Positions 5,934-47,291 are shown, counted from the stretch's first letter. The stretch is DNA of 64,000 bases from an uncultured bacterium (GCA_964518765.1 CAZFJC010000009.1:29584-93583); one strand, 5' to 3'. Notes: generated by a model from the sequence alone, not told the origin. Program-made: numbers and translations.

Positions 5934-7415
5934 TCACCAGACCTCGATCTTGGGCTTCATGGCCTGCTCCAGCTCCCGAGCCGTCCGGTTGCCCGGATCC
6001 TTCTTGCGGATCTCGGCGATCATGGCCTTGGCCTTGGCGATATAGCCCCGGTCATTGAACTTCTGCCCGATGAAGACGTAGTGCTGGGCGATGGCCTCCA
6101 GTGGCTGGATCCTGTCCGGGGCCAGCTTCCTGGCTTCCTCGAAGGCCTGCACCGCCTGCAGGTAAAGCGATTTGGCCTCGGAGCCGGCCGATTTCAGCCT
6201 CTGGCCCTTGAGCGAGTAGCTGTAGCCCAGGTTCATGTACACCCCGTAGGCGGTCCTGGGATTGACCTTGATCCTTTTCTGATACCACTCGATGGCCTTG
6301 TCGTAGTCCCCACTCATATAATAGGCGGTCCCCATAACATAGTAGGTGTCCTCGACCTTGGCCGGGTCCAGCTCACAGCGCTTCTCGTAGCAGACGATGG
6401 CCTGGCTCAGGTACTCCTTGGCCCGCACCGTGTCCTTGGCCTCCTGCAGGGCGCCGGCCGCCTTGACGTACACCTGCCCAGCCTCGAACCAGCGGTCGGC
6501 GTCAACCGGCGACAGGTTCAGGGCCTTCTGGAAGGCCTCCAGTGACTGGGGGTACATCTTGCCGTCTCGATAGAAGGTGGCCAGAATGTACCAGGCCCCG
6601 TCGTTATTGGGATCGATGCGCACCGCCTTCTCGGCTACGGCGATGCCCTCGCGGAACAGGGTGGTGTCCTTTTGCATCTGGTAGGCCTTGGCCAGCAGGA
6701 AGTATCCCGCCGCCTCCCTGGGCTCCAGCTCGGTGTAGCGTTTGAAATGGGATGCCGCCTCCTGATATTTGCCCGTCTCGAAATAGACGTTGCCCAGGTC
6801 GATGTGGGCATCGGCCAGGTTGGGGTCCAGCTGCAGGGCCCTCTGATACTCGGACATGGCATCGGACATCATCCGCTTACGGTAGGAGAGGTTGGCTAGC
6901 CCGTTGTGAGCCGCGGCGTTGTTGGGGTCCATCTGCAACACCTGGCGGAAGGATTCGCCGGCCGTGTTCAGGTCGCCCTTGTCCAGCATCACCTTACCCA
7001 GCCGGTAGCGGAGGTCGGGATCGTTGGGGTTCTTCTGCAGCAGCTGGTTATAGAGCTGCTGGGCCTCGTCCAGCTTCCCGGCCCGGTGATAGACCCTGGC
7101 CAGGGTGCGCTGGGCCTCGGAATGCTTGTACTGGACCGCCACCTTGAGATGGCCGATGGCTTCGTCGTACATCCCCCTGTCGGCGTAGAGCCTGGCCAGC
7201 AGTAACTGGGCCTCCTTGAGCTTGGGCTTGGCGGCCAGCGCCTGCTTAAGGAGGTCGATGGCCTGGTCCGGTTTGTCCGAACGGTCGGCGGCGATCGCCT
7301 GCTGGTAAAGGTCCTCGGCCTTGGGCTTAGCCGCCTCCACCGAATGGGCGCAGCCTAATGCTAGAGCGGCCGCCCAACAGGAGATTATCAGGATCCTCAT
7401 CAGCCTCTTGTGCAT
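5934..7415 (-). CDS. TPR-repeat lipoprotein (periplasmic or outer-membrane associated)
   Basis: Signal and lipobox LALGCA; many 34-residue TPR repeats (Y/A/L/G pattern). Confidence 0.8.
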   Translation of the reverse strand: MHKRLMRILIISCWAAALALGCAHSVEAAKPKAEDLYQQAIAADRSDKPDQAIDLLKQALAAKPKLKEAQLLLARLYADRGMYDEAIGHLKVAVQYKHSEAQRTLARVYHRAGKLDEAQQLYNQLLQKNPNDPDLRYRLGKVMLDKGDLNTAGESFRQVLQMDPNNAAAHNGLANLSYRKRMMSDAMSEYQRALQLDPNLADAHIDLGNVYFETGKYQEAASHFKRYTELEPREAAGYFLLAKAYQMQKDTTLFREGIAVAEKAVRIDPNNDGAWYILATFYRDGKMYPQSLEAFQKALNLSPVDADRWFEAGQVYVKAAGALQEAKDTVRAKEYLSQAIVCYEKRCELDPAKVEDTYYVMGTAYYMSGDYDKAIEWYQKRIKVNPRTAYGVYMNLGYSYSLKGQRLKSAGSEAKSLYLQAVQAFEEARKLAPDRIQPLEAIAQHYVFIGQKFNDRGYIAKAKAMIAEIRKKDPGNRTARELEQAMKPKIEVW

Positions 7416-11445: not shown

Positions 11446-11491
11446 TAAAAACAGAGAGCTCCGCTTTAAGATGGAGTTCTCTCTGTTTTTT
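11446..11491. terminator. bidirectional rho-independent terminator between convergent uvrA and queG
   Basis: Stem ACAGAGAGCTCC / GGAGTTCTCTCTGT flanked by an A-run and TTTTTT. Confidence 0.7.
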
Positions 11492-11500
11492 CTTATGTTA

Positions 11501-12535
11501 TCATTCTCGACTTAACTTACTAAGCGCCCACTCCGCATGCTCCCTTACCTCCGGGCTGCGGCTGTTCCTGGCGGCCTCTTCCAGGGCCGGGACGGCGGCC
11601 CGGTCGCCGATGTTCCCCAATGCCACGGCCGCGTTGCGCTGGATGGCCCCGAAGCTCACCCAGCTTTCGGCCATCTGGTTGCCGCTATATCTTTTACGGA
11701 AATCCCTTTCGTCCATCCCCAAAATCGGTATCAGCGGCAGGCTGGGGCCCACCCGGCCGCAACTAGATTTTTTATTTGTCGGCCTGGCCTTTTTATTCAG
11801 CGGACAGGCGTCCTGGCAGATGTTGCACCCATATAGCCGGTCGCCCCAAAACTTTCTGACCTCCTCGGGAAGAGTCATCTGCCGGCTGGACATCCACTGC
11901 AGGCACCGGCTCGAATCCACCACCCCGGGCTCCACGATGGCCCCGGTGGGGCAGGCGTCCACGCAGGCCCAGCAGTCGCCGCAGCCGTCCGGCACCGGTT
12001 CGTCCGGCTCCAAATCTAGGCCCGAGACCAGCAGGCCGAGGACAATCCAAGAACCGAACTCGGAGGTGGTGATCAACCCGTGCTTCCCGTACCACCCCAC
12101 CCCGGCCCGCGCCGCCAGCGGTTTCTCGGCCAGCCTGCCGTTGGAAAATATCTTACACTGTAATAAACCGCCCAGCTCTTTTTCCAACCTGCCGGCTACG
12201 GCTTTGAGCCTGTCCCTGGTGTCCTGGTAGTAGTTGCTCCAATCGTAGCGGGCTATTCGTCCGTGCGGCTCGCCGGGCTTGCCCAGCGATTCCGGGCCGG
12301 ACTCCAGGTAGCAGTTGGCCACGACCAGGACCGACCTGGCGCCGGGGAGTTCGGAGCTTGGATCGAACCTTGGCTCGATGCCCTCGACATCCCAGTTGGG
12401 CTTGAGCCCCCGTTTCACCTGCTTTCTGGCCCGCTCCAGAGCCCCGGTGTCCTGCCCGGCCGGGGCGATACCGGCCGCGTCCAGCCCTGCCTCCAGGGCC
12501 AGTGACTTGACGAAGACCGCACTTATCCGCTTCAC
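11501..12535 (-). CDS. queG: epoxyqueuosine reductase
   Basis: Two 4Fe-4S ferredoxin motifs (CGDCWACVDACP, CNICQDACP); C-terminal HEAT-like repeat. Confidence 0.85.
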   Translation of the reverse strand: MKRISAVFVKSLALEAGLDAAGIAPAGQDTGALERARKQVKRGLKPNWDVEGIEPRFDPSSELPGARSVLVVANCYLESGPESLGKPGEPHGRIARYDWSNYYQDTRDRLKAVAGRLEKELGGLLQCKIFSNGRLAEKPLAARAGVGWYGKHGLITTSEFGSWIVLGLLVSGLDLEPDEPVPDGCGDCWACVDACPTGAIVEPGVVDSSRCLQWMSSRQMTLPEEVRKFWGDRLYGCNICQDACPLNKKARPTNKKSSCGRVGPSLPLIPILGMDERDFRKRYSGNQMAESWVSFGAIQRNAAVALGNIGDRAAVPALEEAARNSRSPEVREHAEWALSKLSRE

Positions 12536-13548
12536 GAGCCTGACTTCATTCTTTCGATCTCCTCAGCCAGGCTTTGCCAGATCCGCCGGTGCTCCGCCGC
12601 TTTCTCCCCGTCTCCGGACGCCTCATACGCCTTGGCGTAGGCCTGGTGCAGGGCGATCCTCAGCTTCCGATCGCCGATCTTGGGCTCCAGCATCCTGGCC
12701 AGAGACAGCAGCTCCAAGCTCTCATTGACGTGTTCCGGGTCGGCCAGCATCTCGGCGGTGTGCACCAGGGCCGCCATCTCGGTGGCCACGTCGTCCACCT
12801 CCCGGGCTATCTCGATGCTTTTCCCCCAGACCTCCATGGCCCGCTCCTTCTGGCCCATGTCCCGGTAGGAGAGCCCCATATCGAACCAGGTGGCGGCCTC
12901 GGCCTGGCGGTTGCCGTACTCGGGGAAAACGGCCAGGGCCTGGCGGCAGCAGTCCAGCGCCTTCTGGGGCTGGCCGCCGGTACGGTAGATGCTGGAGAGG
13001 TTGATCAGGGTCATGGTGGCGTATTGCACCTCGCCCAGCTCCCGGAACAGGACCAGCGCCTGCTGGTAGTATCCGGTGGCCTGGTCTTCCAGGCTCATGG
13101 CGTAATGGACGTTGCCCAGGTTGTTGAGGGCCGAGGCCTGCATCAGCCGGTCCCCGGATTCACGCGATTTTTCAAGCACCTCGGTGTACGAGGAGGCCGC
13201 GGCCTGCAGGTCCCCGGTGCGTCGGTGTATGTTGCCGATGATGTTGGCCACCCTCAGCGCCTTGGCTTCGTCCTTCAGCTCGTGGAAGAGACGCAGGGTC
13301 TCCCTCTCGTCCTCCATGGCCCGGCCGTGCTCCGAGACCAGCAGGTAGCAGTTGCCCCTGGTCCTGAAGGCCTCGGCCAGGCCCCTCTGGTACTCGAGGC
13401 GGCGCGACAGCTCCAGGGCCCGGTCGCACAGCTCGATGGCGCCCCGCGGGTCCTTCTCCCTCAGCTCCACCGCCAGCCGGTTCATCAGGTCAGCCTTGGC
13501 CGGGCCGTCGGCCATGGCCTCCAATTTGGTTTTCAGCTCAGGCTCCAC
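12532..13548 (-). CDS. cytoplasmic TPR-repeat protein, paralog of 17339..18388
   Basis: No signal peptide; N-terminal MxxELxxKLxAMxDxPxKADLM motif; TPR_10/12-like repeats. Confidence 0.8.
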   Translation of the reverse strand: MEPELKTKLEAMADGPAKADLMNRLAVELREKDPRGAIELCDRALELSRRLEYQRGLAEAFRTRGNCYLLVSEHGRAMEDERETLRLFHELKDEAKALRVANIIGNIHRRTGDLQAAASSYTEVLEKSRESGDRLMQASALNNLGNVHYAMSLEDQATGYYQQALVLFRELGEVQYATMTLINLSSIYRTGGQPQKALDCCRQALAVFPEYGNRQAEAATWFDMGLSYRDMGQKERAMEVWGKSIEIAREVDDVATEMAALVHTAEMLADPEHVNESLELLSLARMLEPKIGDRKLRIALHQAYAKAYEASGDGEKAAEHRRIWQSLAEEIERMKSGS

Positions 13549-13563
13549 TTGCCGTTCCCGCCC

Positions 13564-14439
13564 TCAGCTCCCGACGGCCATCGGCAGGGTGAAGCTGATG
13601 CCCGTGCCCTCGCCCACCCGGCTCTTGACCGATATCCTACCACCATGCGCCGTCACGATGGCCTTGACGATGGACAGCCCCAGACCCATCCCGGTCTGGC
13701 GCCTGGCGGCATCGGTGCTTTCCACCTGGAAGAAGCGGTCGAAGATCCTGGGAATGGCTTCCTCGGGGATGCCGATGCCGGTGTCTGTAACCACGATTAC
13801 CACCTGTCCCTCGGCGGGGCTGGCCTCGGCCGTTACCCTTATGATTCCCTTCTCGGTGAACTTGATGGCATTCACCAGCAGGTTATCCAGCACCTGGGCG
13901 ATGCGGCCCCGGTCGGCGTTGACGGCGACATCCTCTGCCACCTCGGCGACGGCCTCGAGCCCCTTCCTCTCCAACATCACCCTCTGCCCCCCCAGCACCT
14001 CATCTACCAAGGGCTTGAGCGGGAACGGCTCTGGGTCCACCGTCAGCTTGCCGGACTCCAGCCTGGTGAAATCCAGCAGGTCCGAGATCTGCCGGTGAAG
14101 CTTCTTAAGGCTCCGCGACATAGCATCCACCGCCCTGGCCTGCTCGTCGGTGAGCGGCCCCAGCTTGCCGCTCTGCAGGTACTCGTTATATCCTAGCAGG
14201 ATGGTCAGAGGGGTCTTCAGCTCGTGGGAGACGGTGCCGATGAAGTCGCTCTTGAGGCGGTCTAGCTCCAAAAGCTCCAGGTTGGACTGGTTGAGCCGAT
14301 CGTAGGCCGCTGACATGTCCTCCAGCTCCCTCTCTAGCCTGTCCAGCCTGGCCCTCAGGGCGTCGCCTTCTTGAGGCCGGGGATCGGCGGGCCCACTTCC
14401 GCCTGAAGCGACATTTGAATTGGGTATACCTTTCCTCAT
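13564..14439 (-). CDS. soluble sensor histidine kinase with only a coiled-coil N-terminus (no sensor or TM domain)
   Basis: H-box VSHELKTPLT; N, G1, G2 boxes (DTGIGIP, GLGLSIV); no TM segment. Confidence 0.9.
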   Translation of the reverse strand: MRKGIPNSNVASGGSGPADPRPQEGDALRARLDRLERELEDMSAAYDRLNQSNLELLELDRLKSDFIGTVSHELKTPLTILLGYNEYLQSGKLGPLTDEQARAVDAMSRSLKKLHRQISDLLDFTRLESGKLTVDPEPFPLKPLVDEVLGGQRVMLERKGLEAVAEVAEDVAVNADRGRIAQVLDNLLVNAIKFTEKGIIRVTAEASPAEGQVVIVVTDTGIGIPEEAIPRIFDRFFQVESTDAARRQTGMGLGLSIVKAIVTAHGGRISVKSRVGEGTGISFTLPMAVGS

Positions 14440-15792
14440 CTATTTCGCTCCCGGCCCTTGGGCCAGCCTTTTCAGCCTGAGCCTTATCCGGCGCAAACCT
14501 TCCCAGATGCGGCCCAGAACCTCCCTCTCCGCCCCGGGAAACTTGATGATAATCTCGGGGAAATCGTCATTGCCCAGGTGGTCCGGCGGACTTTTGGGCT
14601 CCTCCCTGGCCTCCCGCAGGCATAGGGCGTGCTCGGCCATCTGGTTGAACTCGCGGCAGACGTTCTCCGCCTTCAGCCTCAGGCTCCTAGCCTGATCTTC
14701 CCTGACGCTGGCCGCCAAGCTTTCGCCGCCATCGGCCGCGGATTCGCCCCCAAACCGGTGCAGCTCGTACTCCTCGATATTGGACGAAAGCATCTCCACC
14801 AGGCTCCCGAAGTACCGGAAGCGGAACTGCAGGGCTCCAGCCAGGTCGCCCCTGGCCTCGTGGTTGTCGGCGAACTCCTGGTAGAGGGACCGCAGAACGT
14901 TCTGGTCTCCCAGCTTCTCTGCTAGGGGCAGGGCGTGTTCGGCATACTCCAGGGCGGTGTCCAGCTCGTTGGTCAGGTTCTTGAGCTTGGCCAACAGGGT
15001 CATAACGTAGACCTCCATGACGGCGTTGCCGCCGTCGACCGCCAGGTCCATGGCCTTCATCAGGCATTCGTAAGATTGGTTGTATTCTCCGGAGTCGCGG
15101 TGGAGGTTGGCGATGTTGATCCAGCTGTGCACCTGGGAGAAGCGGTCTCCTATCTGCTGGCGGATGGCCAGGCTTTCCTTGAGGTGCTCCATGGCCCCCT
15201 GCCGGTCCCCCAGCGTCTTCATACATAGCGCGATGTTGCTCAGAGCGTGGGCCACGTTGCGGCTGTCCCCGACCCTCTCCAGGATCTCCAGGCTCCGCTG
15301 GAAGTGCTCCAGGGCCTTTTCGTTGTCGTCCAGGCTCCGGAAGGTCAGCCCGATATTGTTGATGACATAGGCCCGGATCATCTCGTCATCCGAACCAGCT
15401 AGGATCTCCAGCGCCCTCTGGAAGTGCTCCAGGGCTACCCCCAGGGCCCCCATCCTGGTGTAGGCCAGCCCGATGTTGTTCAGACACCTGCCGGCCTCGC
15501 GGGCATCCCCCAGCTCTCGATACATGGCCAGGGCCTGCAGGCCGCAGCTGACCGACCGGGGATAATCCCCCAGCTGCTCGTATATGGCGCCTGTTATCCT
15601 GGTGGCCGAGGCCAGGCTCTGGCTGAGCTGTAGCCTTTGGCTGAGCTGGGACGCCTTCTCCGCCTGGGCCAGGGCCTGAATAGGGTCGGTGCTCTGGTAG
15701 AGCCCGGCCAGTTCGATCAGCAGATCGGCCCGCTCCGGCGAATCGGGAAGGTTTTCGAGGATTGCTTGGATTTCCTGTATTCGGTTTGACAC
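14440..15792 (-). CDS. cytoplasmic TPR-repeat protein, translationally coupled to the histidine kinase
   Basis: N-terminal LPDSPERADLL motif shared with the two flanking TPR paralogs; at least 8 TPR-like repeats; stop abuts the HK start. Confidence 0.8.
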   Translation of the reverse strand: MSNRIQEIQAILENLPDSPERADLLIELAGLYQSTDPIQALAQAEKASQLSQRLQLSQSLASATRITGAIYEQLGDYPRSVSCGLQALAMYRELGDAREAGRCLNNIGLAYTRMGALGVALEHFQRALEILAGSDDEMIRAYVINNIGLTFRSLDDNEKALEHFQRSLEILERVGDSRNVAHALSNIALCMKTLGDRQGAMEHLKESLAIRQQIGDRFSQVHSWINIANLHRDSGEYNQSYECLMKAMDLAVDGGNAVMEVYVMTLLAKLKNLTNELDTALEYAEHALPLAEKLGDQNVLRSLYQEFADNHEARGDLAGALQFRFRYFGSLVEMLSSNIEEYELHRFGGESAADGGESLAASVREDQARSLRLKAENVCREFNQMAEHALCLREAREEPKSPPDHLGNDDFPEIIIKFPGAEREVLGRIWEGLRRIRLRLKRLAQGPGAK

Positions 15793-15794
15793 TG

Positions 15795-17342
15795 CTAGTT
15801 GGCGTGTTTTTTTGCTTTGGTTTCCATTACCAATAAAGCACGCTGCTCCCAGTATGTCAGCCCCATGGATCGGAATTCCTCAGCCGATCGGTTGAGCTGC
15901 TTGTTCGCTTCTTCTTCATCGCCACACCTTGCCAGCATGGTCCCCCATCTCAATATAACGTGCGCTGCCAGGTAAGGCCGTTGACATGAACGGTACAAGC
16001 TGGCTGCCTGGCTGTAACATTCGCCGGCTCCGGCGGCCTCGCCGTTGTGTTCATTATAGATTCCCTGGGCTTCGAACCATCTGGCCTGTTTATATGGCGA
16101 GCCAGAGCCGACGGCCTCATCCACCCCCATCCAAATCTCCTCGCGGGCTGTCGCCTGTTCGCCTAGGTGGATCCTGGCTATGGCCAGAAAGCGCTTGGCC
16201 TCATCCTTTATCGGTGAAGTATCACGCATTCCAACAAGCCGCAACGCCTTCTCAAAGGATCCTTTGGCGGCGGCATAGTCGCCCTTGACCATCTGGGCCT
16301 CCCCTTTCATGAGAAGATAGCCTGCGGTCTGCTCATCTCCTCCCTTGTCTTTTATGATCTTTTCGGCTTCCTCCAGGATTTCCAGGGCAGCAGCCCCATC
16401 GCCCTTCATACAGAACAGCTTTCCCCGGGCCGCAATGTTTTCCGCCTCTTCCTTACGGAACCCCATTTGGCGGAAAAGGTCTCGCGACTGCTCATATGAT
16501 GACATGGCCCCGTCGATCCGGCCTAGGCAGGTCAGAATGTTCCCGATGCCGTTCAGGCTGAAGGCTTGACCATGGATGTCCCCGATATGCCTCTGCAAAC
16601 TCAAAGCGCGTTCGAATAGGGAAAGGGCTTGCTTCAGCAGTTCCTGGTCCTGTAGTATTATCCCTAAGTAGTACAGACATTTCGCCTGCCCCCCGATGTT
16701 GCCGATCTGCTCGTGCAGATACAGGGAACTCTCGAACAGCTTCTGTGCCTCATGGCTGTTCCCCAGCTCGTACTGGCTGGCGCCCATATTGTACAGGGTG
16801 GAAGCCTCGCCCAGCCGGTCATTCAGCCGTCGCCTTATATTCAGCGATTCCCCGTCGCATTCGTCCGAAAGCCGGTGTTCCCCGCGGCAAAAGTGAATCA
16901 TGCCGATGTTGTGCAAAGCCATGGCCACGTTCCGCTCGTCACCCAGGCTTTGGAACAACTCTTTGGATCGTTGCAGGGTTTGCATGGCGTCATCAAACAT
17001 CCTCCGGTCCTTGAGGATGACGCCCAGGTTGTTCAGGCAGGTTGCCTGGCCGTATTTGTCGCCGGACTTCTGCCTGAGTATTAGGGCGCGCTCTATATGT
17101 CGTCGCGACTGGTCGAATTCGCCGACGTTATAGAGCACGGTCCCGATGCAGTTGAGGCTGGCTGCCTCCCGGTCTTCTTTGTTCAATACCTGGGCTACTT
17201 TTAGGCTTCTTTTGGCCTCGGCCAGGGCCCTTCTACTTTCCCCGGTGATTTTCAATACTTCCGCGATTCCTATCAGCAGGCCATGGAAAACCTCAGCCTG
17301 ATCAGATCTCCCCCGGAATCGATCTTCTCCTTTCGTGTTCAT
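15795..17342 (-). CDS. cytoplasmic TPR-repeat protein (515 aa)
   Basis: Repeated LxNxGxxxxxxGxxxxA TPR_12-like units; no signal peptide. Confidence 0.8.
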   Translation of the reverse strand: MNTKGEDRFRGRSDQAEVFHGLLIGIAEVLKITGESRRALAEAKRSLKVAQVLNKEDREAASLNCIGTVLYNVGEFDQSRRHIERALILRQKSGDKYGQATCLNNLGVILKDRRMFDDAMQTLQRSKELFQSLGDERNVAMALHNIGMIHFCRGEHRLSDECDGESLNIRRRLNDRLGEASTLYNMGASQYELGNSHEAQKLFESSLYLHEQIGNIGGQAKCLYYLGIILQDQELLKQALSLFERALSLQRHIGDIHGQAFSLNGIGNILTCLGRIDGAMSSYEQSRDLFRQMGFRKEEAENIAARGKLFCMKGDGAAALEILEEAEKIIKDKGGDEQTAGYLLMKGEAQMVKGDYAAAKGSFEKALRLVGMRDTSPIKDEAKRFLAIARIHLGEQATAREEIWMGVDEAVGSGSPYKQARWFEAQGIYNEHNGEAAGAGECYSQAASLYRSCQRPYLAAHVILRWGTMLARCGDEEEANKQLNRSAEEFRSMGLTYWEQRALLVMETKAKKHAN

Positions 17343-18388
17343 GATTGACTATCCCTTTCGGGTTCGCTCTCTCCTCCCCACCCGCCCTGCTGCCTCAAGT
17401 CACGTTCCATCCGCTCGGCCATCGCCAGGAAGCTCTCAGCCTTGGCCCCGTGGCCCATCTGCCTCCAGGCATCAGCATACGCCTTTTGTATAGTAATTAG
17501 AAGCCTCTTATCCCCCAATCCCGCGCTCTGGGCGTTGGCCATGTCTAGCACCTCCAACGCCTCCTCGGCCTTGCCGTCGGCCAGCATCAGGGTGGCGGTG
17601 CTGGTTAGGGCCGATACCTCGGTCTCCAAGTCCCCCACCTCCCTGGCCATTTTGATGCATTTTTCCCACTCGTCCATGGCCTGCACCGGGTCGCCCATAT
17701 CTCGATAGATGTTACCGGCCACGTGGTGGGCCGAGGCCGCCCCGGCCTTGTCACCGTACTCCATCATGATTTTAGCCGCCCCCAGGCTGTTTTCTAAGGC
17801 CGGCTCGAAATCGCCCGATTCCCGGTAGAGGTCGGCCAGGTTGACCATGGCTCCGGCAATGAACCGCTGTTCCCCTAACTCCTGGTATCCCTCCAGCCCT
17901 TGGAGGAAGTACTTGAGGGCGCCCTGGCTGTCTCCCATATATTGGTGGACGATTCCCAGGTTGTTTAAGGCCGAGGCCGCCAGCAGCTTGTCACCTATCA
18001 TGTTTGCGACCATTTGGACGTGCTGGTAGCTCTCGGCCGCCTTCCGGTAGTCCCCTAGGTGCCGGTGGATGCAGGCGATCTGGTTCTCCATCCGGCAGGC
18101 CCTCGCCTCCTCGCCCAGTTTGCGCAGCAGGCCCAGGGATTCCAGCCCGTGCTTCAGCGCCTCCCGGTGGCGGGCCAGCACTATCTCGCAGAAGCTTAGT
18201 ATGCCCAGGCCGTAGGCCCTCCCCATCTCATAGTCCAGGCGCTCCGAGGCTGCCAGCGATTCCCGGCACAGCTCGGCCGCCTCGGCCGGCCGGCTGTCCG
18301 AGAGTTCGGCCGCCATCTTGGTCATCAGGTCGGCCTTCTCCGGCGAGTCCGGCATGGCCGACAGTTTCTGCTGGAGCTCCTTGTCCAT
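17339..18388 (-). CDS. cytoplasmic TPR-repeat protein, paralog of 12532..13548
   Basis: MDKELQQKLSAMPDSPEKADLM N-terminal motif; collinear similarity to the 12532..13548 protein. Confidence 0.8.
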   Translation of the reverse strand: MDKELQQKLSAMPDSPEKADLMTKMAAELSDSRPAEAAELCRESLAASERLDYEMGRAYGLGILSFCEIVLARHREALKHGLESLGLLRKLGEEARACRMENQIACIHRHLGDYRKAAESYQHVQMVANMIGDKLLAASALNNLGIVHQYMGDSQGALKYFLQGLEGYQELGEQRFIAGAMVNLADLYRESGDFEPALENSLGAAKIMMEYGDKAGAASAHHVAGNIYRDMGDPVQAMDEWEKCIKMAREVGDLETEVSALTSTATLMLADGKAEEALEVLDMANAQSAGLGDKRLLITIQKAYADAWRQMGHGAKAESFLAMAERMERDLRQQGGWGGESEPERDSQS

Positions 18389-18412
18389 GTAACGCTTTTT
18401 CCGCCTGGTTCT

Positions 18413-18441
18413 ATTTTACTATCGGACGGCCGCAAAAGCAA
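18413..18441 (-). promoter_or_regulatory. candidate sigma70 promoter TTGCTT-N17-TAAAAT for the TPR-HK operon
   Basis: Hexamers with 17-nt spacer about 25 nt upstream of the first TPR gene ATG. Confidence 0.35.
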
Positions 18442-18475
18442 GAAAATAAGAAGCCCGGGTCGATAAACCCGGGCT
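18442..18475 (-). terminator. rho-independent terminator downstream of the acyl-CoA dehydrogenase gene
   Basis: Stem AGCCCGGGT / ACCCGGGCT followed by a U-rich tract on the minus strand. Confidence 0.6.
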
Positions 18476-18493
18476 TTCCTGGCCGCTCGTCCC

Positions 18494-31200: not shown

Positions 31201-32001
31201 TTACTCTTTTCTGAGCGAGAAATTCACCGGATACATTATCCATACTCGCACCGGCTTTCCGCCAGGCGCTAAAGCGGGGGTGAACAACATCTGTTTGCAT
31301 GCGTCAACAGCTGCCTTGTCCAGCAAAGAACTGCCTGAACTCTTTTCCACCTCGGCACGCATTACCTTTCCGTCCAGATCTAGAAGCAAGGTCAGATACA
31401 CTTTTCCCTGGATGCCGGCCGCTATGGCTTTTTCTGGGAAAACAACTTTAGCGTTCCTGATGATTTCAGGTTCTTTTTCAATGGGAACGTATGCGCCTTT
31501 ATCCGGTATTTCTTTAATTTCCGACTCCAAAGGGCTTTTTATTATCATCCTATCGAGTATGTTTTCTTTTTCCTTTTCATGAAGATACGTGCTATCGATT
31601 TTTCTAGTACTATCTTTTTTCCCCAGATAAGATGGTGTTGCGACCATGTCATTCTTTTCGTTACCTTTTTTTATCTGCCTTAAAGGCACATCCCATACTA
31701 AATCTTTTCCTCTTTCCAATTCGTAGCTGAAGTTATAAAGCTGGTATCCTTCTTTTCTCATCTGCGCTTTATAAAAACCAGATTTTAACTTAAGGGTACA
31801 AGGCGTTACCCCCATCTTCTTACCCAGTATTATAACATCAGCCCCCAATGGATCGCTTATAAAAACCATTGTGCAAATCATCGCAGCATCGGTAATCTTC
31901 CTGGAGCTTGGTGTTGCTTTTTCCCTCGCCTCTTTTGAAAGCTTGGCTTGCGCCACTGCCACAACAACCAGTAAAATGATAGCCAATAAACGTTTTTTCA
32001 C
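31201..32001 (-). CDS. secreted PEGA-domain plus TonB_C-domain protein (TonB C-terminal domain paralog without an N-terminal TM anchor)
   Basis: Signal peptide [19 protein letters not shown]; PEGA motif [18 protein letters not shown]; C-terminus similar to the TonB at 2714..3529; the gene is conspicuously AT-rich. Confidence 0.65.
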
Positions 32002-32022
32002 GTGCTCTGCCTTTTGGGTGCT

Positions 32023-32373
32023 TTAGTTGCTTTCATCCCAAACCTCGTAGGCCCTCCGCAGGTGCGGTATCACTATCGACCCGCCCACCACCAGGGCCAC
32101 GTTCATCACCTCGTCGAACTCGGCCTGGGTGACCCCGGCCTTTTTGCACTGCAGCACGTGGTAGGTGACGCAGTCCTGGCAGCGCAGCACCAGCGAGGCA
32201 CACAGCCCCAGCATCTCCTTGGTCCTAGCCGGCAGGGCGCCGTCCTTGTAGGCCGCCTCGTCCAGGTTGAAGAACCGCTTAAGGCCCAGGTGGCCCGAGG
32301 CCAGCACCCGCTTGTTCATGCGTGAGCGGTACGCCTCGAAATCCTTAATCTTATTTGCCATTTTTCGCCGCAA
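32023..32373 (-). CDS. carboxymuconolactone decarboxylase / AhpD-like family protein
   Basis: CxxC-containing AhpD core (CQDCVTYHV). Confidence 0.7.
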   Translation of the reverse strand: MRRKMANKIKDFEAYRSRMNKRVLASGHLGLKRFFNLDEAAYKDGALPARTKEMLGLCASLVLRCQDCVTYHVLQCKKAGVTQAEFDEVMNVALVVGGSIVIPHLRRAYEVWDESN

Positions 32374-32389
32374 AAAACGTACTTGGTTG

Positions 32390-32815
32390 CTATTGTTGCC
32401 ATTTATCGGGACCTAACCCCTCTATCCCCTTCCCTCGAGGGAAGGGGCGGGGTAATGTTAGTCTCTTATGATAATTCATGATTTTCTTTAAAACTCTCTC
32501 AAGGTCATTCACAACCTCATCGTTGCTGAAACGCCAGACGACGATGTCCTGGGTCTTTATTATCCTGTCCCTTTCCCTATTGTAATCCTTCTGCTTTTCA
32601 TGAACCCCGCCATCTATCTCTATCACCAATTTCAATTTGCTGCAATAGAAATCAGCAATAAAACCATCGATTATCTGCTGCCTGCGAAAATGCAGGCCAT
32701 TTAACCTATTATCCTTGACTGCAAGCCAAAAAGCATTTTCCGCCGGAGTCATTGACTTTCTATACTTTTGGGCCAGAGCCAGTTTGGTCCGAGTATATCG
32801 CTGATTGCGGATCAT
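32390..32815 (-). CDS. DUF559 (Vsr/PD-(D/E)xK-like endonuclease fold) protein, AT-rich; its C-terminus reads through a GC palindrome
   Basis: DUF559-like motifs (DFYC..KLVIEIDGGVH); the last ~15 codons are encoded by the flanking repeat. Confidence 0.65.
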   Translation of the reverse strand: MIRNQRYTRTKLALAQKYRKSMTPAENAFWLAVKDNRLNGLHFRRQQIIDGFIADFYCSKLKLVIEIDGGVHEKQKDYNRERDRIIKTQDIVVWRFSNDEVVNDLERVLKKIMNYHKRLTLPRPFPRGKGIEGLGPDKWQQ

Positions 32816-45320: not shown

Positions 45321-47291
45321 TTACCGGATTATGGCCAGCTTCCTGGTGGCGGTGTAGTTCCCGGTCATCAGTCGGTAGAAATAGACCCCATTGGCCACAG
45401 GTTTTCCCGATCTGTCCTTTGTGTCCCAGACCACCGTATGCGTGCCTTCCGGCCTCCCGCCCTCGAACAAGGGTCTGACCAATTTGCCAGATACGTCAAA
45501 TACTCCTAGCGACACGTGGGTGGATGCTGTCAGGCTGTAAGAGATCTTCACGACGCCCCTGGCCGGGTTGGGGCTTGCGGGCATCAGCATCACCCTCGGC
45601 CGCAAAGGCGTCGGCGGCTCGCCCTCGACCCCGGTCGTCAACTCGGAATACCTGATCTCGTTGACGTTGTAGACCTCCTTGGTGGCCATGTTCTGCACGT
45701 AGACGATGAAGAACAGTCGGCCCTTGTTCCAGTTCGCGTGCAACGTGAAATCTATGTCCTGGGAGGACAGTCCGTTGCCTATGGTCATCGGGGTCCCCGA
45801 GGCGCTGGGCAGGATGGTCCTGACGAACTCCCGCATGGAGTCGCAGTGGGGGTTGGCCGTGGGCGACGGCCAGACGCAATACTTGCTCTCCTCGGTGATG
45901 ACCATCCGGAGGTTGCCGTTTATCGGGACGCCGCCGGGGTAATCGATCTCCGCGTGGATGCTGCCGGTGTTCCCGTTCTGGGTCCCGCTGAGGGTGATGT
46001 CGAAGGGCGATCTGTAGGCTTTGCGCTCGTTGAACTTGGCCCGGTGATCGCTGTACACCGACGACCAGCCGCCGACTATCTTGTCGCCGCCGTCCCAAAC
46101 CGTGGTCGGGTATCCTCCGATGTCCCCGTAGAAGTTCATGATGTTGGCCGATTGCACCGTGTAAAAGCTGTCCTGGCTGGTGCTGGGATGCAGGCCGGCC
46201 ACGATTATCGAATCCCCCGATTCCTCCCTGAGCTGTTCCAGCGAGTTCTGGACGTACGGGCAGTATCCGCACCACTGGGCGGTGAAGTCCTCGACGTACA
46301 CCCGGCGGCGGCGGTTGTAGGAGTTGACGTCCGTCTTGGTGGTGTCGTTAGAGGGCACCTGGTCTATGCCCAAGGAAGTGTAGGCGATGACATTGTAGAG
46401 ATTGCCGATGGCCGGGGTCCATGACGGAAAGTCTGCCGTCTGCGTGCCGCCGCTGGCCAGGTCGGTTACCGTTTGGTCCTCCTGGTAAACGGTCACCCCT
46501 GCCGAATCGATCCTCACGGTCGCCGTGAAGGTCTCCGTGTTGCTGCCGTTGTTCTTCACCTCTACCTGGGGCGCCACCGGGTCCATCAGCTGTCCCAGCG
46601 GGGCATTGATCGCCGACACCAACACATCGTGGTCCGCCAGCTGTCCGGTGACCTGGATGTTGTCCAGATACAGCTCGTTGCCGAAGGCGGTATGAGCCCT
46701 GAACAGCACCTTGTTCGTGCCCACCGGAAGGGCGTATCGCTTGGTCGCCCACTGGCCGGCGTTCGGCACGAACTGGCTGGATGTGGCACCGCCTGTGTTC
46801 AGAGGTCCCGTGTACCCCCCCTTCAAACCAATCAGCTTTGTCCAACTTGACCCAGCGTTGCTAGAGGTCCATATGGTGAGTGAATCTACATATTGCGATG
46901 GATTGGTATTATAGGATGCGTAGGCGTGGTCGAATATGAGCGAATCCCCGGCGACCGATGGCCAGAATTCGGTGGTTATCATGTCCTGGGTGCCGGAGCT
47001 GATGTTGTAGAAATCGGCCCGGGCGGCGGCGATTCCTGAGCCGTACCCGCTGCACCCCTCGTAACGGCCCCACAGGGCCGCGCTTCCGGCCAGCGACCAC
47101 CCGGCAGGGGGGAAGATCGCCGGCTCGAAATCCTCGACAAAATTGCCCTTGGGGATGCTGGCGCCTTCCTGTAACGGCGTGAACAGGTCGAACTGACCGA
47201 CAATGCCGTTAACTCGCGCTGGTTTTTCGGCCAAAGCTACCGTTCCGATCATGCCGACCAGCAACAACGCGACCAAACCATTTCTCGTCAT
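45321..47291 (-). CDS. secreted multidomain protein: N-terminal beta-rich domain, CARDB/Ig-like domain, thioredoxin-fold Omp28-like domain (WCGYCP), T9SS C-terminal sorting domain
   Basis: Signal peptide; EDFTAQWCGYCP; C-terminal ...GKPVANGVYFYRLMTGNYTATRKLAIIR is a typical Por/T9SS CTD. Confidence 0.7.
   Translation of the reverse strand: MTRNGLVALLLVGMIGTVALAEKPARVNGIVGQFDLFTPLQEGASIPKGNFVEDFEPAIFPPAGWSLAGSAALWGRYEGCSGYGSGIAAARADFYNISSGTQDMITTEFWPSVAGDSLIFDHAYASYNTNPSQYVDSLTIWTSSNAGSSWTKLIGLKGGYTGPLNTGGATSSQFVPNAGQWATKRYALPVGTNKVLFRAHTAFGNELYLDNIQVTGQLADHDVLVSAINAPLGQLMDPVAPQVEVKNNGSNTETFTATVRIDSAGVTVYQEDQTVTDLASGGTQTADFPSWTPAIGNLYNVIAYTSLGIDQVPSNDTTKTDVNSYNRRRRVYVEDFTAQWCGYCPYVQNSLEQLREESGDSIIVAGLHPSTSQDSFYTVQSANIMNFYGDIGGYPTTVWDGGDKIVGGWSSVYSDHRAKFNERKAYRSPFDITLSGTQNGNTGSIHAEIDYPGGVPINGNLRMVITEESKYCVWPSPTANPHCDSMREFVRTILPSASGTPMTIGNGLSSQDIDFTLHANWNKGRLFFIVYVQNMATKEVYNVNEIRYSELTTGVEGEPPTPLRPRVMLMPASPNPARGVVKISYSLTASTHVSLGVFDVSGKLVRPLFEGGRPEGTHTVVWDTKDRSGKPVANGVYFYRLMTGNYTATRKLAIIR

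Follow-up and report, generated by a model that had tools for sequence, protein, structure and literature searches.

The TPR gene cluster and its short histidine kinase

The DNA analyzed here, hereafter the window, is a 64,000-nt stretch from an uncultured bacterium (GCA_964518765.1 CAZFJC010000009.1:29584-93583), and it contains a cluster of six minus-strand genes in which four genes encoding tetratricopeptide repeat (TPR) proteins flank a gene encoding a class I histidine kinase (HK). In the direction of transcription, the cluster consists of TPR4 (349 amino acids, aa; 17339-18388), TPR3 (515 aa; 15795-17342), TPR2 (450 aa; 14440-15792), HK (291 aa; 13564-14439), TPR1 (338 aa, with a GTG start; 12532-13548), and queG, which encodes an epoxyqueuosine reductase (11501-12535; TIGR00276, E = 1.6e-76, over the cut-off). 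These genes look like a single operon, because their junctions are tight and a terminator stands at each boundary, with none listed inside. TPR4 and TPR3 overlap by 4 nt, TPR3 and TPR2 are 2 nt apart, the TAG stop of TPR2 lies directly against the ATG start of HK (with GGGAG 8 nt upstream), HK and TPR1 are separated by 15 nt, and TPR1 overlaps queG by 4 nt at the TPR1 stop. The upstream boundary is a strong minus-strand intrinsic terminator following an acyl-CoA dehydrogenase (ACAD) gene (18451-18476; an 11-bp stem with seven GC pairs, then a T-run), and the downstream boundary is a terminator-like hairpin on the plus strand (11453-11482) between the convergent uvrA and queG genes; the terminator scan listed no minus-strand terminator within the cluster. 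The original prediction, made for this DNA before the present analysis, had described six tightly packed minus-strand genes with the TPR2 stop abutting the HK start, and all six open reading frames (ORFs) were found in that arrangement. The interval that it proposed (12532-18441) holds the TPR and HK genes, but queG falls outside it. Found downstream of the TPR genes in most related loci as well, queG is probably the last gene of the operon, co-transcribed but outside any signaling function. No protein of the cluster has a hydrophobic stretch of transmembrane (TM) strength. An anti-phage defense system was ruled out, since the PADLOC matches on the locus were confined to a generic TPR model and two others of marginal strength.

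The Pfam content of the HK is limited to a HisKA domain (residues 63-130, E = 1.4e-18) and a HATPase_c domain (residues 176-288, E = 9.4e-32). Its catalytic boxes are complete, with an H-box (SHELKTP, 14209-14229), N-box (DNLLVNAIKF, 13858-13887), G1 box (DTGIGI, 13768-13785), F box (FDRFF, 13729-13743), and G2 box (GMGLGL, 13675-13692), and these boxes and the catalytic residues are invariant across all orthologs. Neither Pfam nor hydrophobicity revealed a TM segment, HAMP, PAS, or GAF domain at the N-terminus. The 62 residues preceding HisKA are too few for a PAS or GAF domain, and they comprise a disordered tail rich in G, P, and S (residues 1-26) and a helix (residues ~27-62) with clean a/d heptads (L28, L32, L35, L39, M42, Y46, L49, N53, and L56) that runs into the H-box. 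A cryptic sensor domain is thereby ruled out, and the kinase is, as originally described, sensor-less and cytoplasmic, with only a tail and a coiled-coil stub before HisKA. The heptad helix aligns with the linker that follows the HAMP domain in paralogous kinases.

Orthologs of the HK (285-299 aa, 64-83% identical over their full length) come only from metagenomic bins that carry the annotation Candidatus Edwardsbacteria or are related to it. After these, the closest proteins belong to the same phylum and are TM-HAMP kinases of 500 aa (45-50% identity). In the locus of the nearest of these paralogs (L077, 788-9231; L-numbers denote related loci, all from one candidate phylum, with the window as L001), a TM-HAMP kinase of 506 aa shares an operon with five tandem SBP_bac_5 genes for solute-binding proteins, and genes for a 127-aa receiver and an EAL protein come after it. 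For the short kinase, the 64-kb window contains no receiver (REC), GGDEF, or EAL domain and no second kinase, in agreement with the original statement that it lacks a response regulator, and no REC domain lies within 8-10 kb of the HK orthologs in L014 and L159. The ratio of nonsynonymous to synonymous substitution rates (dN/dS) between orthologs is 0.19-0.33 for the short HK and 0.20-0.25 for the TPR genes, so that both the kinase and the TPR genes are under purifying selection.

All four TPR proteins match Pfam TPR_12, TPR_10, and TPR_MalT. TPR1 and TPR4 (338 and 349 aa) are paralogs, as had been proposed, with 39% identity over 333 aa (E = 3e-65), and TPR2 belongs to their family at a greater distance (27% identity). 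The N-terminal motif that had been reported for three of the four proteins is real and kept in the orthologs of these three groups, but it is looser than stated, reading MPDSPEKADLM in TPR4, LPDSPERADLL in TPR2, and MADGPAKADLM in TPR1. TPR3, also of the TPR_12 type, lacks the motif, and its base composition (GC 55%; GC at third codon positions, GC3, 0.67) departs from that of all neighboring genes (GC3 0.79-0.90). TPR4 has orthologs at 61-80% identity in L017, L095, L160, L163, and L164. No other TPR gene at the locus is as conserved or as widely distributed as TPR1 (orthologs at 54-87% identity, some of them in kinase-free loci). In the NCBI gene model, TPR1 (327 aa) starts from an ATG inside the gene; the GTG start farther upstream that is used here (338 aa) is backed by orthologs of 338-339 aa and by the similarity between the 11 added residues and the N-terminus of TPR4.

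The AlphaFold2 model of TPR1 (predicted local distance difference test, pLDDT, 94) is an eight-repeat superhelix with TPRs across residues 3-336. The TPR2 model (pLDDT 88, predicted template modeling score 0.81) also has eight TPRs (residues 2-313), followed by a C-terminal helical module (residues 317-450; 14443-14844) with three long helices predicted confidently at residues 317-348, 356-394, and 420-445, the last of them amphipathic. In Foldseek searches, both models match LGN/GPSM2/Pins best (for TPR1, LGN at a TM-score of 0.82-0.86 and a root-mean-square deviation, rmsd, of ~3 Å), with kinesin light chain, including its leucine-zipper complex, further down the lists. From these confident models, TPR1 and TPR2 are predicted to be peptide-binding superhelices of the LGN/Pins type. 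The C-terminal module of TPR2 has conserved positions among orthologs, and its only matches among 1.84 billion representative proteins are those orthologs, which rules out a wider family. A HAMP remnant, suggested by the resemblance of ‘EFNQMAEH’ in this module to the second helix motif of HAMP (AS2), was likewise rejected, as profile-profile comparison with HAMP kinases gave a probability of 7%.

Variation of the locus in related genomes

In the closer relatives the flanks of the cluster are stable, with fabF, rnc, and ACAD on one side and queG, usually followed by uvrA, on the other, while the island between them varies. Besides the window (TPR4-TPR3-TPR2-HK-TPR1), a separate kinase gene is present in L017 (TPRx-TPR4-TPR2-HK-TPR1), in L014/L159 (TPR2-HK only), and in L007, where TPRx, a pseudogene fragment of TPR4, HK, TPR1, and a TPR3-like gene are found and TPR2 is missing. 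L080 contains TPR4 broken into several ORFs, TPR2, and a TPR-HK fusion as one ORF. No kinase is present in L010/L011/L021 (two TPR fragments, TPR2, a 70-aa ORF, a TPR-GGDEF gene, and TPR1), in L079/L160 (TPR4-TPR2, then queG), in L163 and L164 (five to six TPR genes including TPR2 and TPR1), or in the more distant L003-L005 and L006 (TPR1, or TPR1-TPR4, beside uvrA). Three more lineages (P0242-P0244) probably also share the order TPR2-HK-TPR1. At the position that uvrA has in the window, three of these loci contain a gene convergent to queG for a 726-731-aa protein with matches both to TPR and to BTAD, a SARP-type activator (L014, 12080-14275; L159, 11408-13603; L160, 10411-12591).

TPR2 is the TPR gene most consistently found beside the kinase. 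In L017, L014/L159, and L080 the HK ortholog is immediately preceded by a TPR2 ortholog, which together with the window makes four diverged lineages in which the rest of the island differs. The two genes diverge in parallel (identities of 65/64%, 67/65%, and 58/60% for TPR2/HK), while TPR1 stays at ~86%. In the window, TPR2 and HK are in the same frame and one TAG apart; in L017 (13-nt gap) and L014 (35-nt gap) they are in different frames, which rules out read-through of the stop codon into a TPR2-HK fusion as a conserved mechanism.

In L080 (8084-9814 of FWPV01003423.1), an uninterrupted ORF of 577 codons encodes a TPR-HK protein with four TPR_12 matches (an array of ~330 aa), a long coiled coil, HisKA (residues 397-464), and HATPase_c, and with no membrane segment; the ORF ends at the contig end, so that its C-terminus and the downstream genes lie beyond. 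Over its kinase part, this protein shares 60% identity with the window HK. The fusion looks natural and not the product of an assembly error, because the junction between TPR array and coiled coil resembles that of the TPR-GGDEF protein in L011. In a neighbor-joining tree the fused kinase is sister to all short kinases with the HAMP kinases outside, a topology that does not polarize fusion versus fission.

In L010/L011/L021, the position of the kinase between TPR2 and TPR1 is taken by a gene for a 600-aa cytoplasmic TPR-GGDEF protein (L010, 4637-6436; L011, 3241-5049), which has an intact GGEEF motif with an RxxD just upstream and which in L011 opens with a form related to the N-terminal motif of the TPR proteins. 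Just upstream of it, the 70-aa ORF (L010, 4273-4485) aligns with HK residues 5-62 (31% identity, E = 5e-5 for the pair) and ends where the H-box would start. To judge by this alignment, it is probably a remnant of the kinase N-terminus.

Beyond its orthologs, TPR2 finds its best matches in TPR arrays fused to HisKA/HATPase, GGDEF, adenylate/guanylate cyclase, SpoIIE, CHAT, or STAND modules. Among 55 distant TPR2-like loci from reference genomes, about 13 encode fusions of TPRs to a kinase. Most of these have a signal peptide and a membrane helix, and thus a periplasmic TPR domain as in FimS (PMC11053733); several GGDEF fusions and two TPR-HisKA proteins lack a membrane segment.

A candidate TPR-kinase signaling module

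A functional link between the TPR proteins and the kinase is likely, given the TPR2-HK adjacency, the L080 fusion, the TPR-GGDEF replacement, and the use of TPR2 relatives as input modules. That link is the part of the original proposal of a split TPR-sensor kinase that stands. The most economical interpretation is that this cytoplasmic TPR family serves as an input or partner module for signaling enzymes and that the window kinase would receive its input in trans. The cluster may thus be a lineage-specific cytoplasmic signaling module of Candidatus Edwardsbacteria-like bacteria, in which soluble TPR proteins serve as inputs or partners of a truncated HisKA kinase, the output, a reading to which we give an even chance. 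In such a module, the eight-repeat TPR proteins would provide the input, with TPR2 as the leading candidate partner and possibly TPR1 as another. The kinase, retaining only a dimeric signaling-helix stub, would not sense through a domain of its own, and its autokinase/phosphatase balance would be set in trans by the TPR proteins. Contact may be made through the N-terminal tail or coiled coil of the kinase, through assembly with the amphipathic last helix of TPR2, or through TPR proteins assembling with one another. The phosphoryl group would then be passed to a response regulator encoded elsewhere, and we would guess, weakly, at a single-domain receiver coupled to the turnover of cyclic di-GMP (c-di-GMP), an output suggested by the receiver and EAL genes in the operon of the paralogous HAMP kinase and by the replacement with a cyclase in L010/L011/L021. 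We infer the physical contact between TPR proteins and kinase, the direction of regulation, the ligand of the TPR groove, and the identity of the regulator.

Judged by architecture, the closest known system appears to be RcbA/RcbB of Vibrio vulnificus, in which the stand-alone TPR protein RcbA, encoded upstream of RcbB, de-represses the TPR-GGDEF protein RcbB through TPR-TPR contact (PMC12282931). The logic in the window would be the same, with a kinase replacing the diguanylate cyclase. Similar to RcbA, TPR2 is cytoplasmic, stands alone, has a structured C-terminal region of three long helices, and is encoded directly upstream of an output enzyme. TPR2 followed by TPR-GGDEF in L010/L011/L021 has the rcbAB architecture, and TPR2 followed by TPR-HK in L080 is a kinase version of it. 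The two features of RcbB, a TPR part and a GGDEF domain, are both present in the L011 protein; the L080 fusion has the TPR part alone and the window HK neither. By this analogy the window may be derived one step further, with an enzyme that lacks a TPR domain. It also differs from RcbA/RcbB in its output, a histidine kinase and not a diguanylate cyclase, in having three further TPR paralogs in the operon, and in having eight repeats instead of seven.

Other known systems share parts of this design. As in TPR-fused sensor kinases, namely FimS of Porphyromonas gingivalis (PMC11053733) and the TPR-TM-HK proteins of Bacteroidota, a TPR_12-type array would provide the input to a HisKA/HATPase core, and TPR2 and HK combined (741 aa) are of similar length to the Bacteroidota fusions (690-780 aa). 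However, those kinases are single polypeptides with a signal peptide or first TM segment, a periplasmic TPR domain, and a second TM segment, whereas the window proteins are all cytoplasmic, the array and the kinase are encoded by separate genes (as in L014 and L017; they form one polypeptide in L080), and the HK core is not specifically related to the TPR-TM-HK cores. HnoX-HnoK and NosP-NahK (PMC8846402), functional analogues of the proposed module, pair a soluble kinase with a separately encoded sensor from the same operon, an architecture that fits the window, and their regulators are encoded elsewhere and feed c-di-GMP turnover (PMC8846402). Their sensors, however, are a heme H-NOX or a FIST protein binding a small gas ligand, with no TPR module and no array of paralogs. 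LGN/GPSM2/Pins and kinesin light chain have the same eight-repeat TPR_12 superhelix, with a groove that binds extended peptides or coiled coils, and in LGN the C-terminal motifs auto-inhibit the protein, for which the C-terminal helices of TPR2 may offer a parallel. These are, however, eukaryotic polarity or transport scaffolds with no link to two-component systems, and the similarity is structural, at 19-24% sequence identity. In the literature on bacterial cytoplasmic TPR regulators of histidine kinases, we found no direct bacterial precedent, but instead TPR partners of plant ethylene receptors and unrelated accessory proteins.

A broader extension of the proposed module, which we hold only tentatively and with some doubt, is a plug-in platform, in which RcbA-like TPR partners would control interchangeable outputs at one genomic position (a bare HisKA kinase, a TPR-fused kinase, or a TPR-GGDEF protein) through TPR-TPR or TPR-coiled-coil contacts. 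If so, the TPR-partner control of c-di-GMP synthesis, itself described only recently, would extend to two-component phosphorelays, and a TPR input module would be able to work on a kinase in trans through a signaling-helix stub alone. Many bacterial kinases, cyclases, and phosphatases are fused to TPR arrays, and RcbA/RcbB is the first dissected case of control by such arrays that we found. The locus offers natural variants of one orthologous kinase, TPR-fused, bare among stand-alone TPR proteins, or replaced by a TPR-cyclase, a comparative set that could show if TPR input works in cis, in trans, or in both ways, and where on the kinase the signal is received. Because the host phylum is uncultured, such tests are limited to heterologous expression. 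Control of kinases by accessory proteins and TPR input modules are both already known, and the locus is a variant of such designs and not a new kind of system.

Several observations weigh against a TPR-kinase module. The closest sensor-bearing relatives of the HK are HAMP kinases and not TPR kinases, and none of its 120 best matches is a TPR fusion, so descent of the kinase from TPR-sensor kinases, of which the cluster had been said to resemble a split version, is not supported. RcbA acts on the TPR domain of its partner; since the window kinase has no such domain, the documented TPR-TPR contact is not directly applicable to it. When the synteny of the TPR genes with a kinase was surveyed, as the original prediction had proposed, TPR2-HK recurred, but the kinase is lacking from about half of the related loci with TPR2, TPR1, or TPR4 (L079/L160, L163, L164, and L003-L006). 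This outcome is partly of the kind that the prediction had named as refuting it. It follows that the TPR proteins also have a kinase-independent role, and L007 has the kinase without a TPR2 ortholog. As all loci come from one candidate phylum and the flanking genes are equally syntenic, the conserved TPR2-HK adjacency is weak as independent evidence. A conserved hub of four TPR proteins, as first envisaged, does not fit either. The island contains one to six TPR genes, and TPR3 is absent from the otherwise similar L017 and L014, having only counterparts of 28-33% identity at other positions. This absence and its atypical base composition suggest that TPR3 is probably a late addition to the operon, by recent insertion or transfer.

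These observations leave substantial weight to two other explanations, because the loci belong to one phylum with syntenic flanks, the kinase is dispensable, L007 lacks TPR2, and the RcbA mechanism requires a TPR domain in the partner. The TPR genes may form a fast-evolving paralog island with a kinase-independent function, such as scaffolding or protein-protein adaptation, and the kinase may be an unrelated orphan that is regulated otherwise, by heterodimerization or cross-talk with other kinases, by metabolites acting on its catalytic domain, or by expression level alone. The highly variable content of the island, the pseudogenized TPR4 copies in L007 and L080, and the persistence of TPR genes in kinase-free loci (up to six of them in L163/L164) would all be expected from such an island, and the TPR2-HK adjacency could be inherited along with the conserved flanks (ACAD ... 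queG-uvrA) and not selected. We nevertheless regard it as unlikely that the genes are only neighbors, given that an orthologous kinase is fused to a TPR array in L080, that a TPR-GGDEF gene occupies the position of the kinase in L010/L011/L021, that TPR2 relatives are predominantly input modules of signaling enzymes, and that the TPR2 stop lies against the HK start. Alternatively, the kinase could be a decaying remnant of an L080-type fusion, left as an unregulated basal kinase/phosphatase after deletion of the sensor and now being lost across the lineage. The fused form does branch first among the orthologs, the G/P-rich tail at the start of the short kinases, right before the coiled coil, is poorly conserved, and several lineages have lost the kinase, with a probable N-terminal remnant in L010. 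The tree, however, cannot polarize fusion versus fission, and the low dN/dS, the catalytic motifs that remain invariant among orthologs of 64-89% identity, and the retention of the short form in at least four diverged lineages make a decaying kinase rather improbable.

The original prediction had also raised the possibility of Rap/RNPP-like TPR modulators, that is, quorum-sensing proteins that would dephosphorylate or sequester the response regulator of the kinase depending on imported peptides. The size (338-349 aa) and all-TPR_12 make-up seen in the cluster are Rap-like, and Rap structures do appear low in the Foldseek lists. Yet the TPR1 model superimposes on Rap proteins far less well than on LGN/Pins (TM-score 0.58-0.65 and rmsd 6-7 Å, with RapH at 0.65 and the pLS20 Rap at 0.58-0.62), TPR1 consists entirely of TPRs with no N-terminal three-helix bundle or helix-turn-helix domain, and the TPR proteins have no match to RapH_N or an RNPP family. 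Nor could a Phr-type peptide gene fit between the cluster genes, which overlap or lie 0-15 nt apart. Membership of the Rap/RNPP group is ruled out by the fold, the domains, and the spacing of the genes, and a mechanism of this kind is highly improbable for the locus.

Other features of the window

Elsewhere in the window, the gene at 230-1891 encodes another one-component-style regulator, a sigma-54 enhancer-binding protein that has a GAF domain as its input and lacks a receiver domain. A 493-aa TPR protein of a different class (TPR_11/TPR_19/TPR_16; 5934-7415) adjoins a PBP_like_2 gene and a TonB/ExbD cluster, and the same arrangement also flanks uvrA in L007. Between the aspartyl- and histidyl-tRNA synthetase genes lies a low-GC patch (31201-32815) with a gene for a TonB_C and PEGA protein (GC3 0.44) and a 141-aa ORF (GC3 0.51). 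Finally, a 656-aa protein (45321-47291) combines FlgD_ig with a type IX secretion C-terminal sorting domain, a combination consistent with an affiliation of the host with the FCB (Fibrobacterota-Chlorobiota-Bacteroidota) group.

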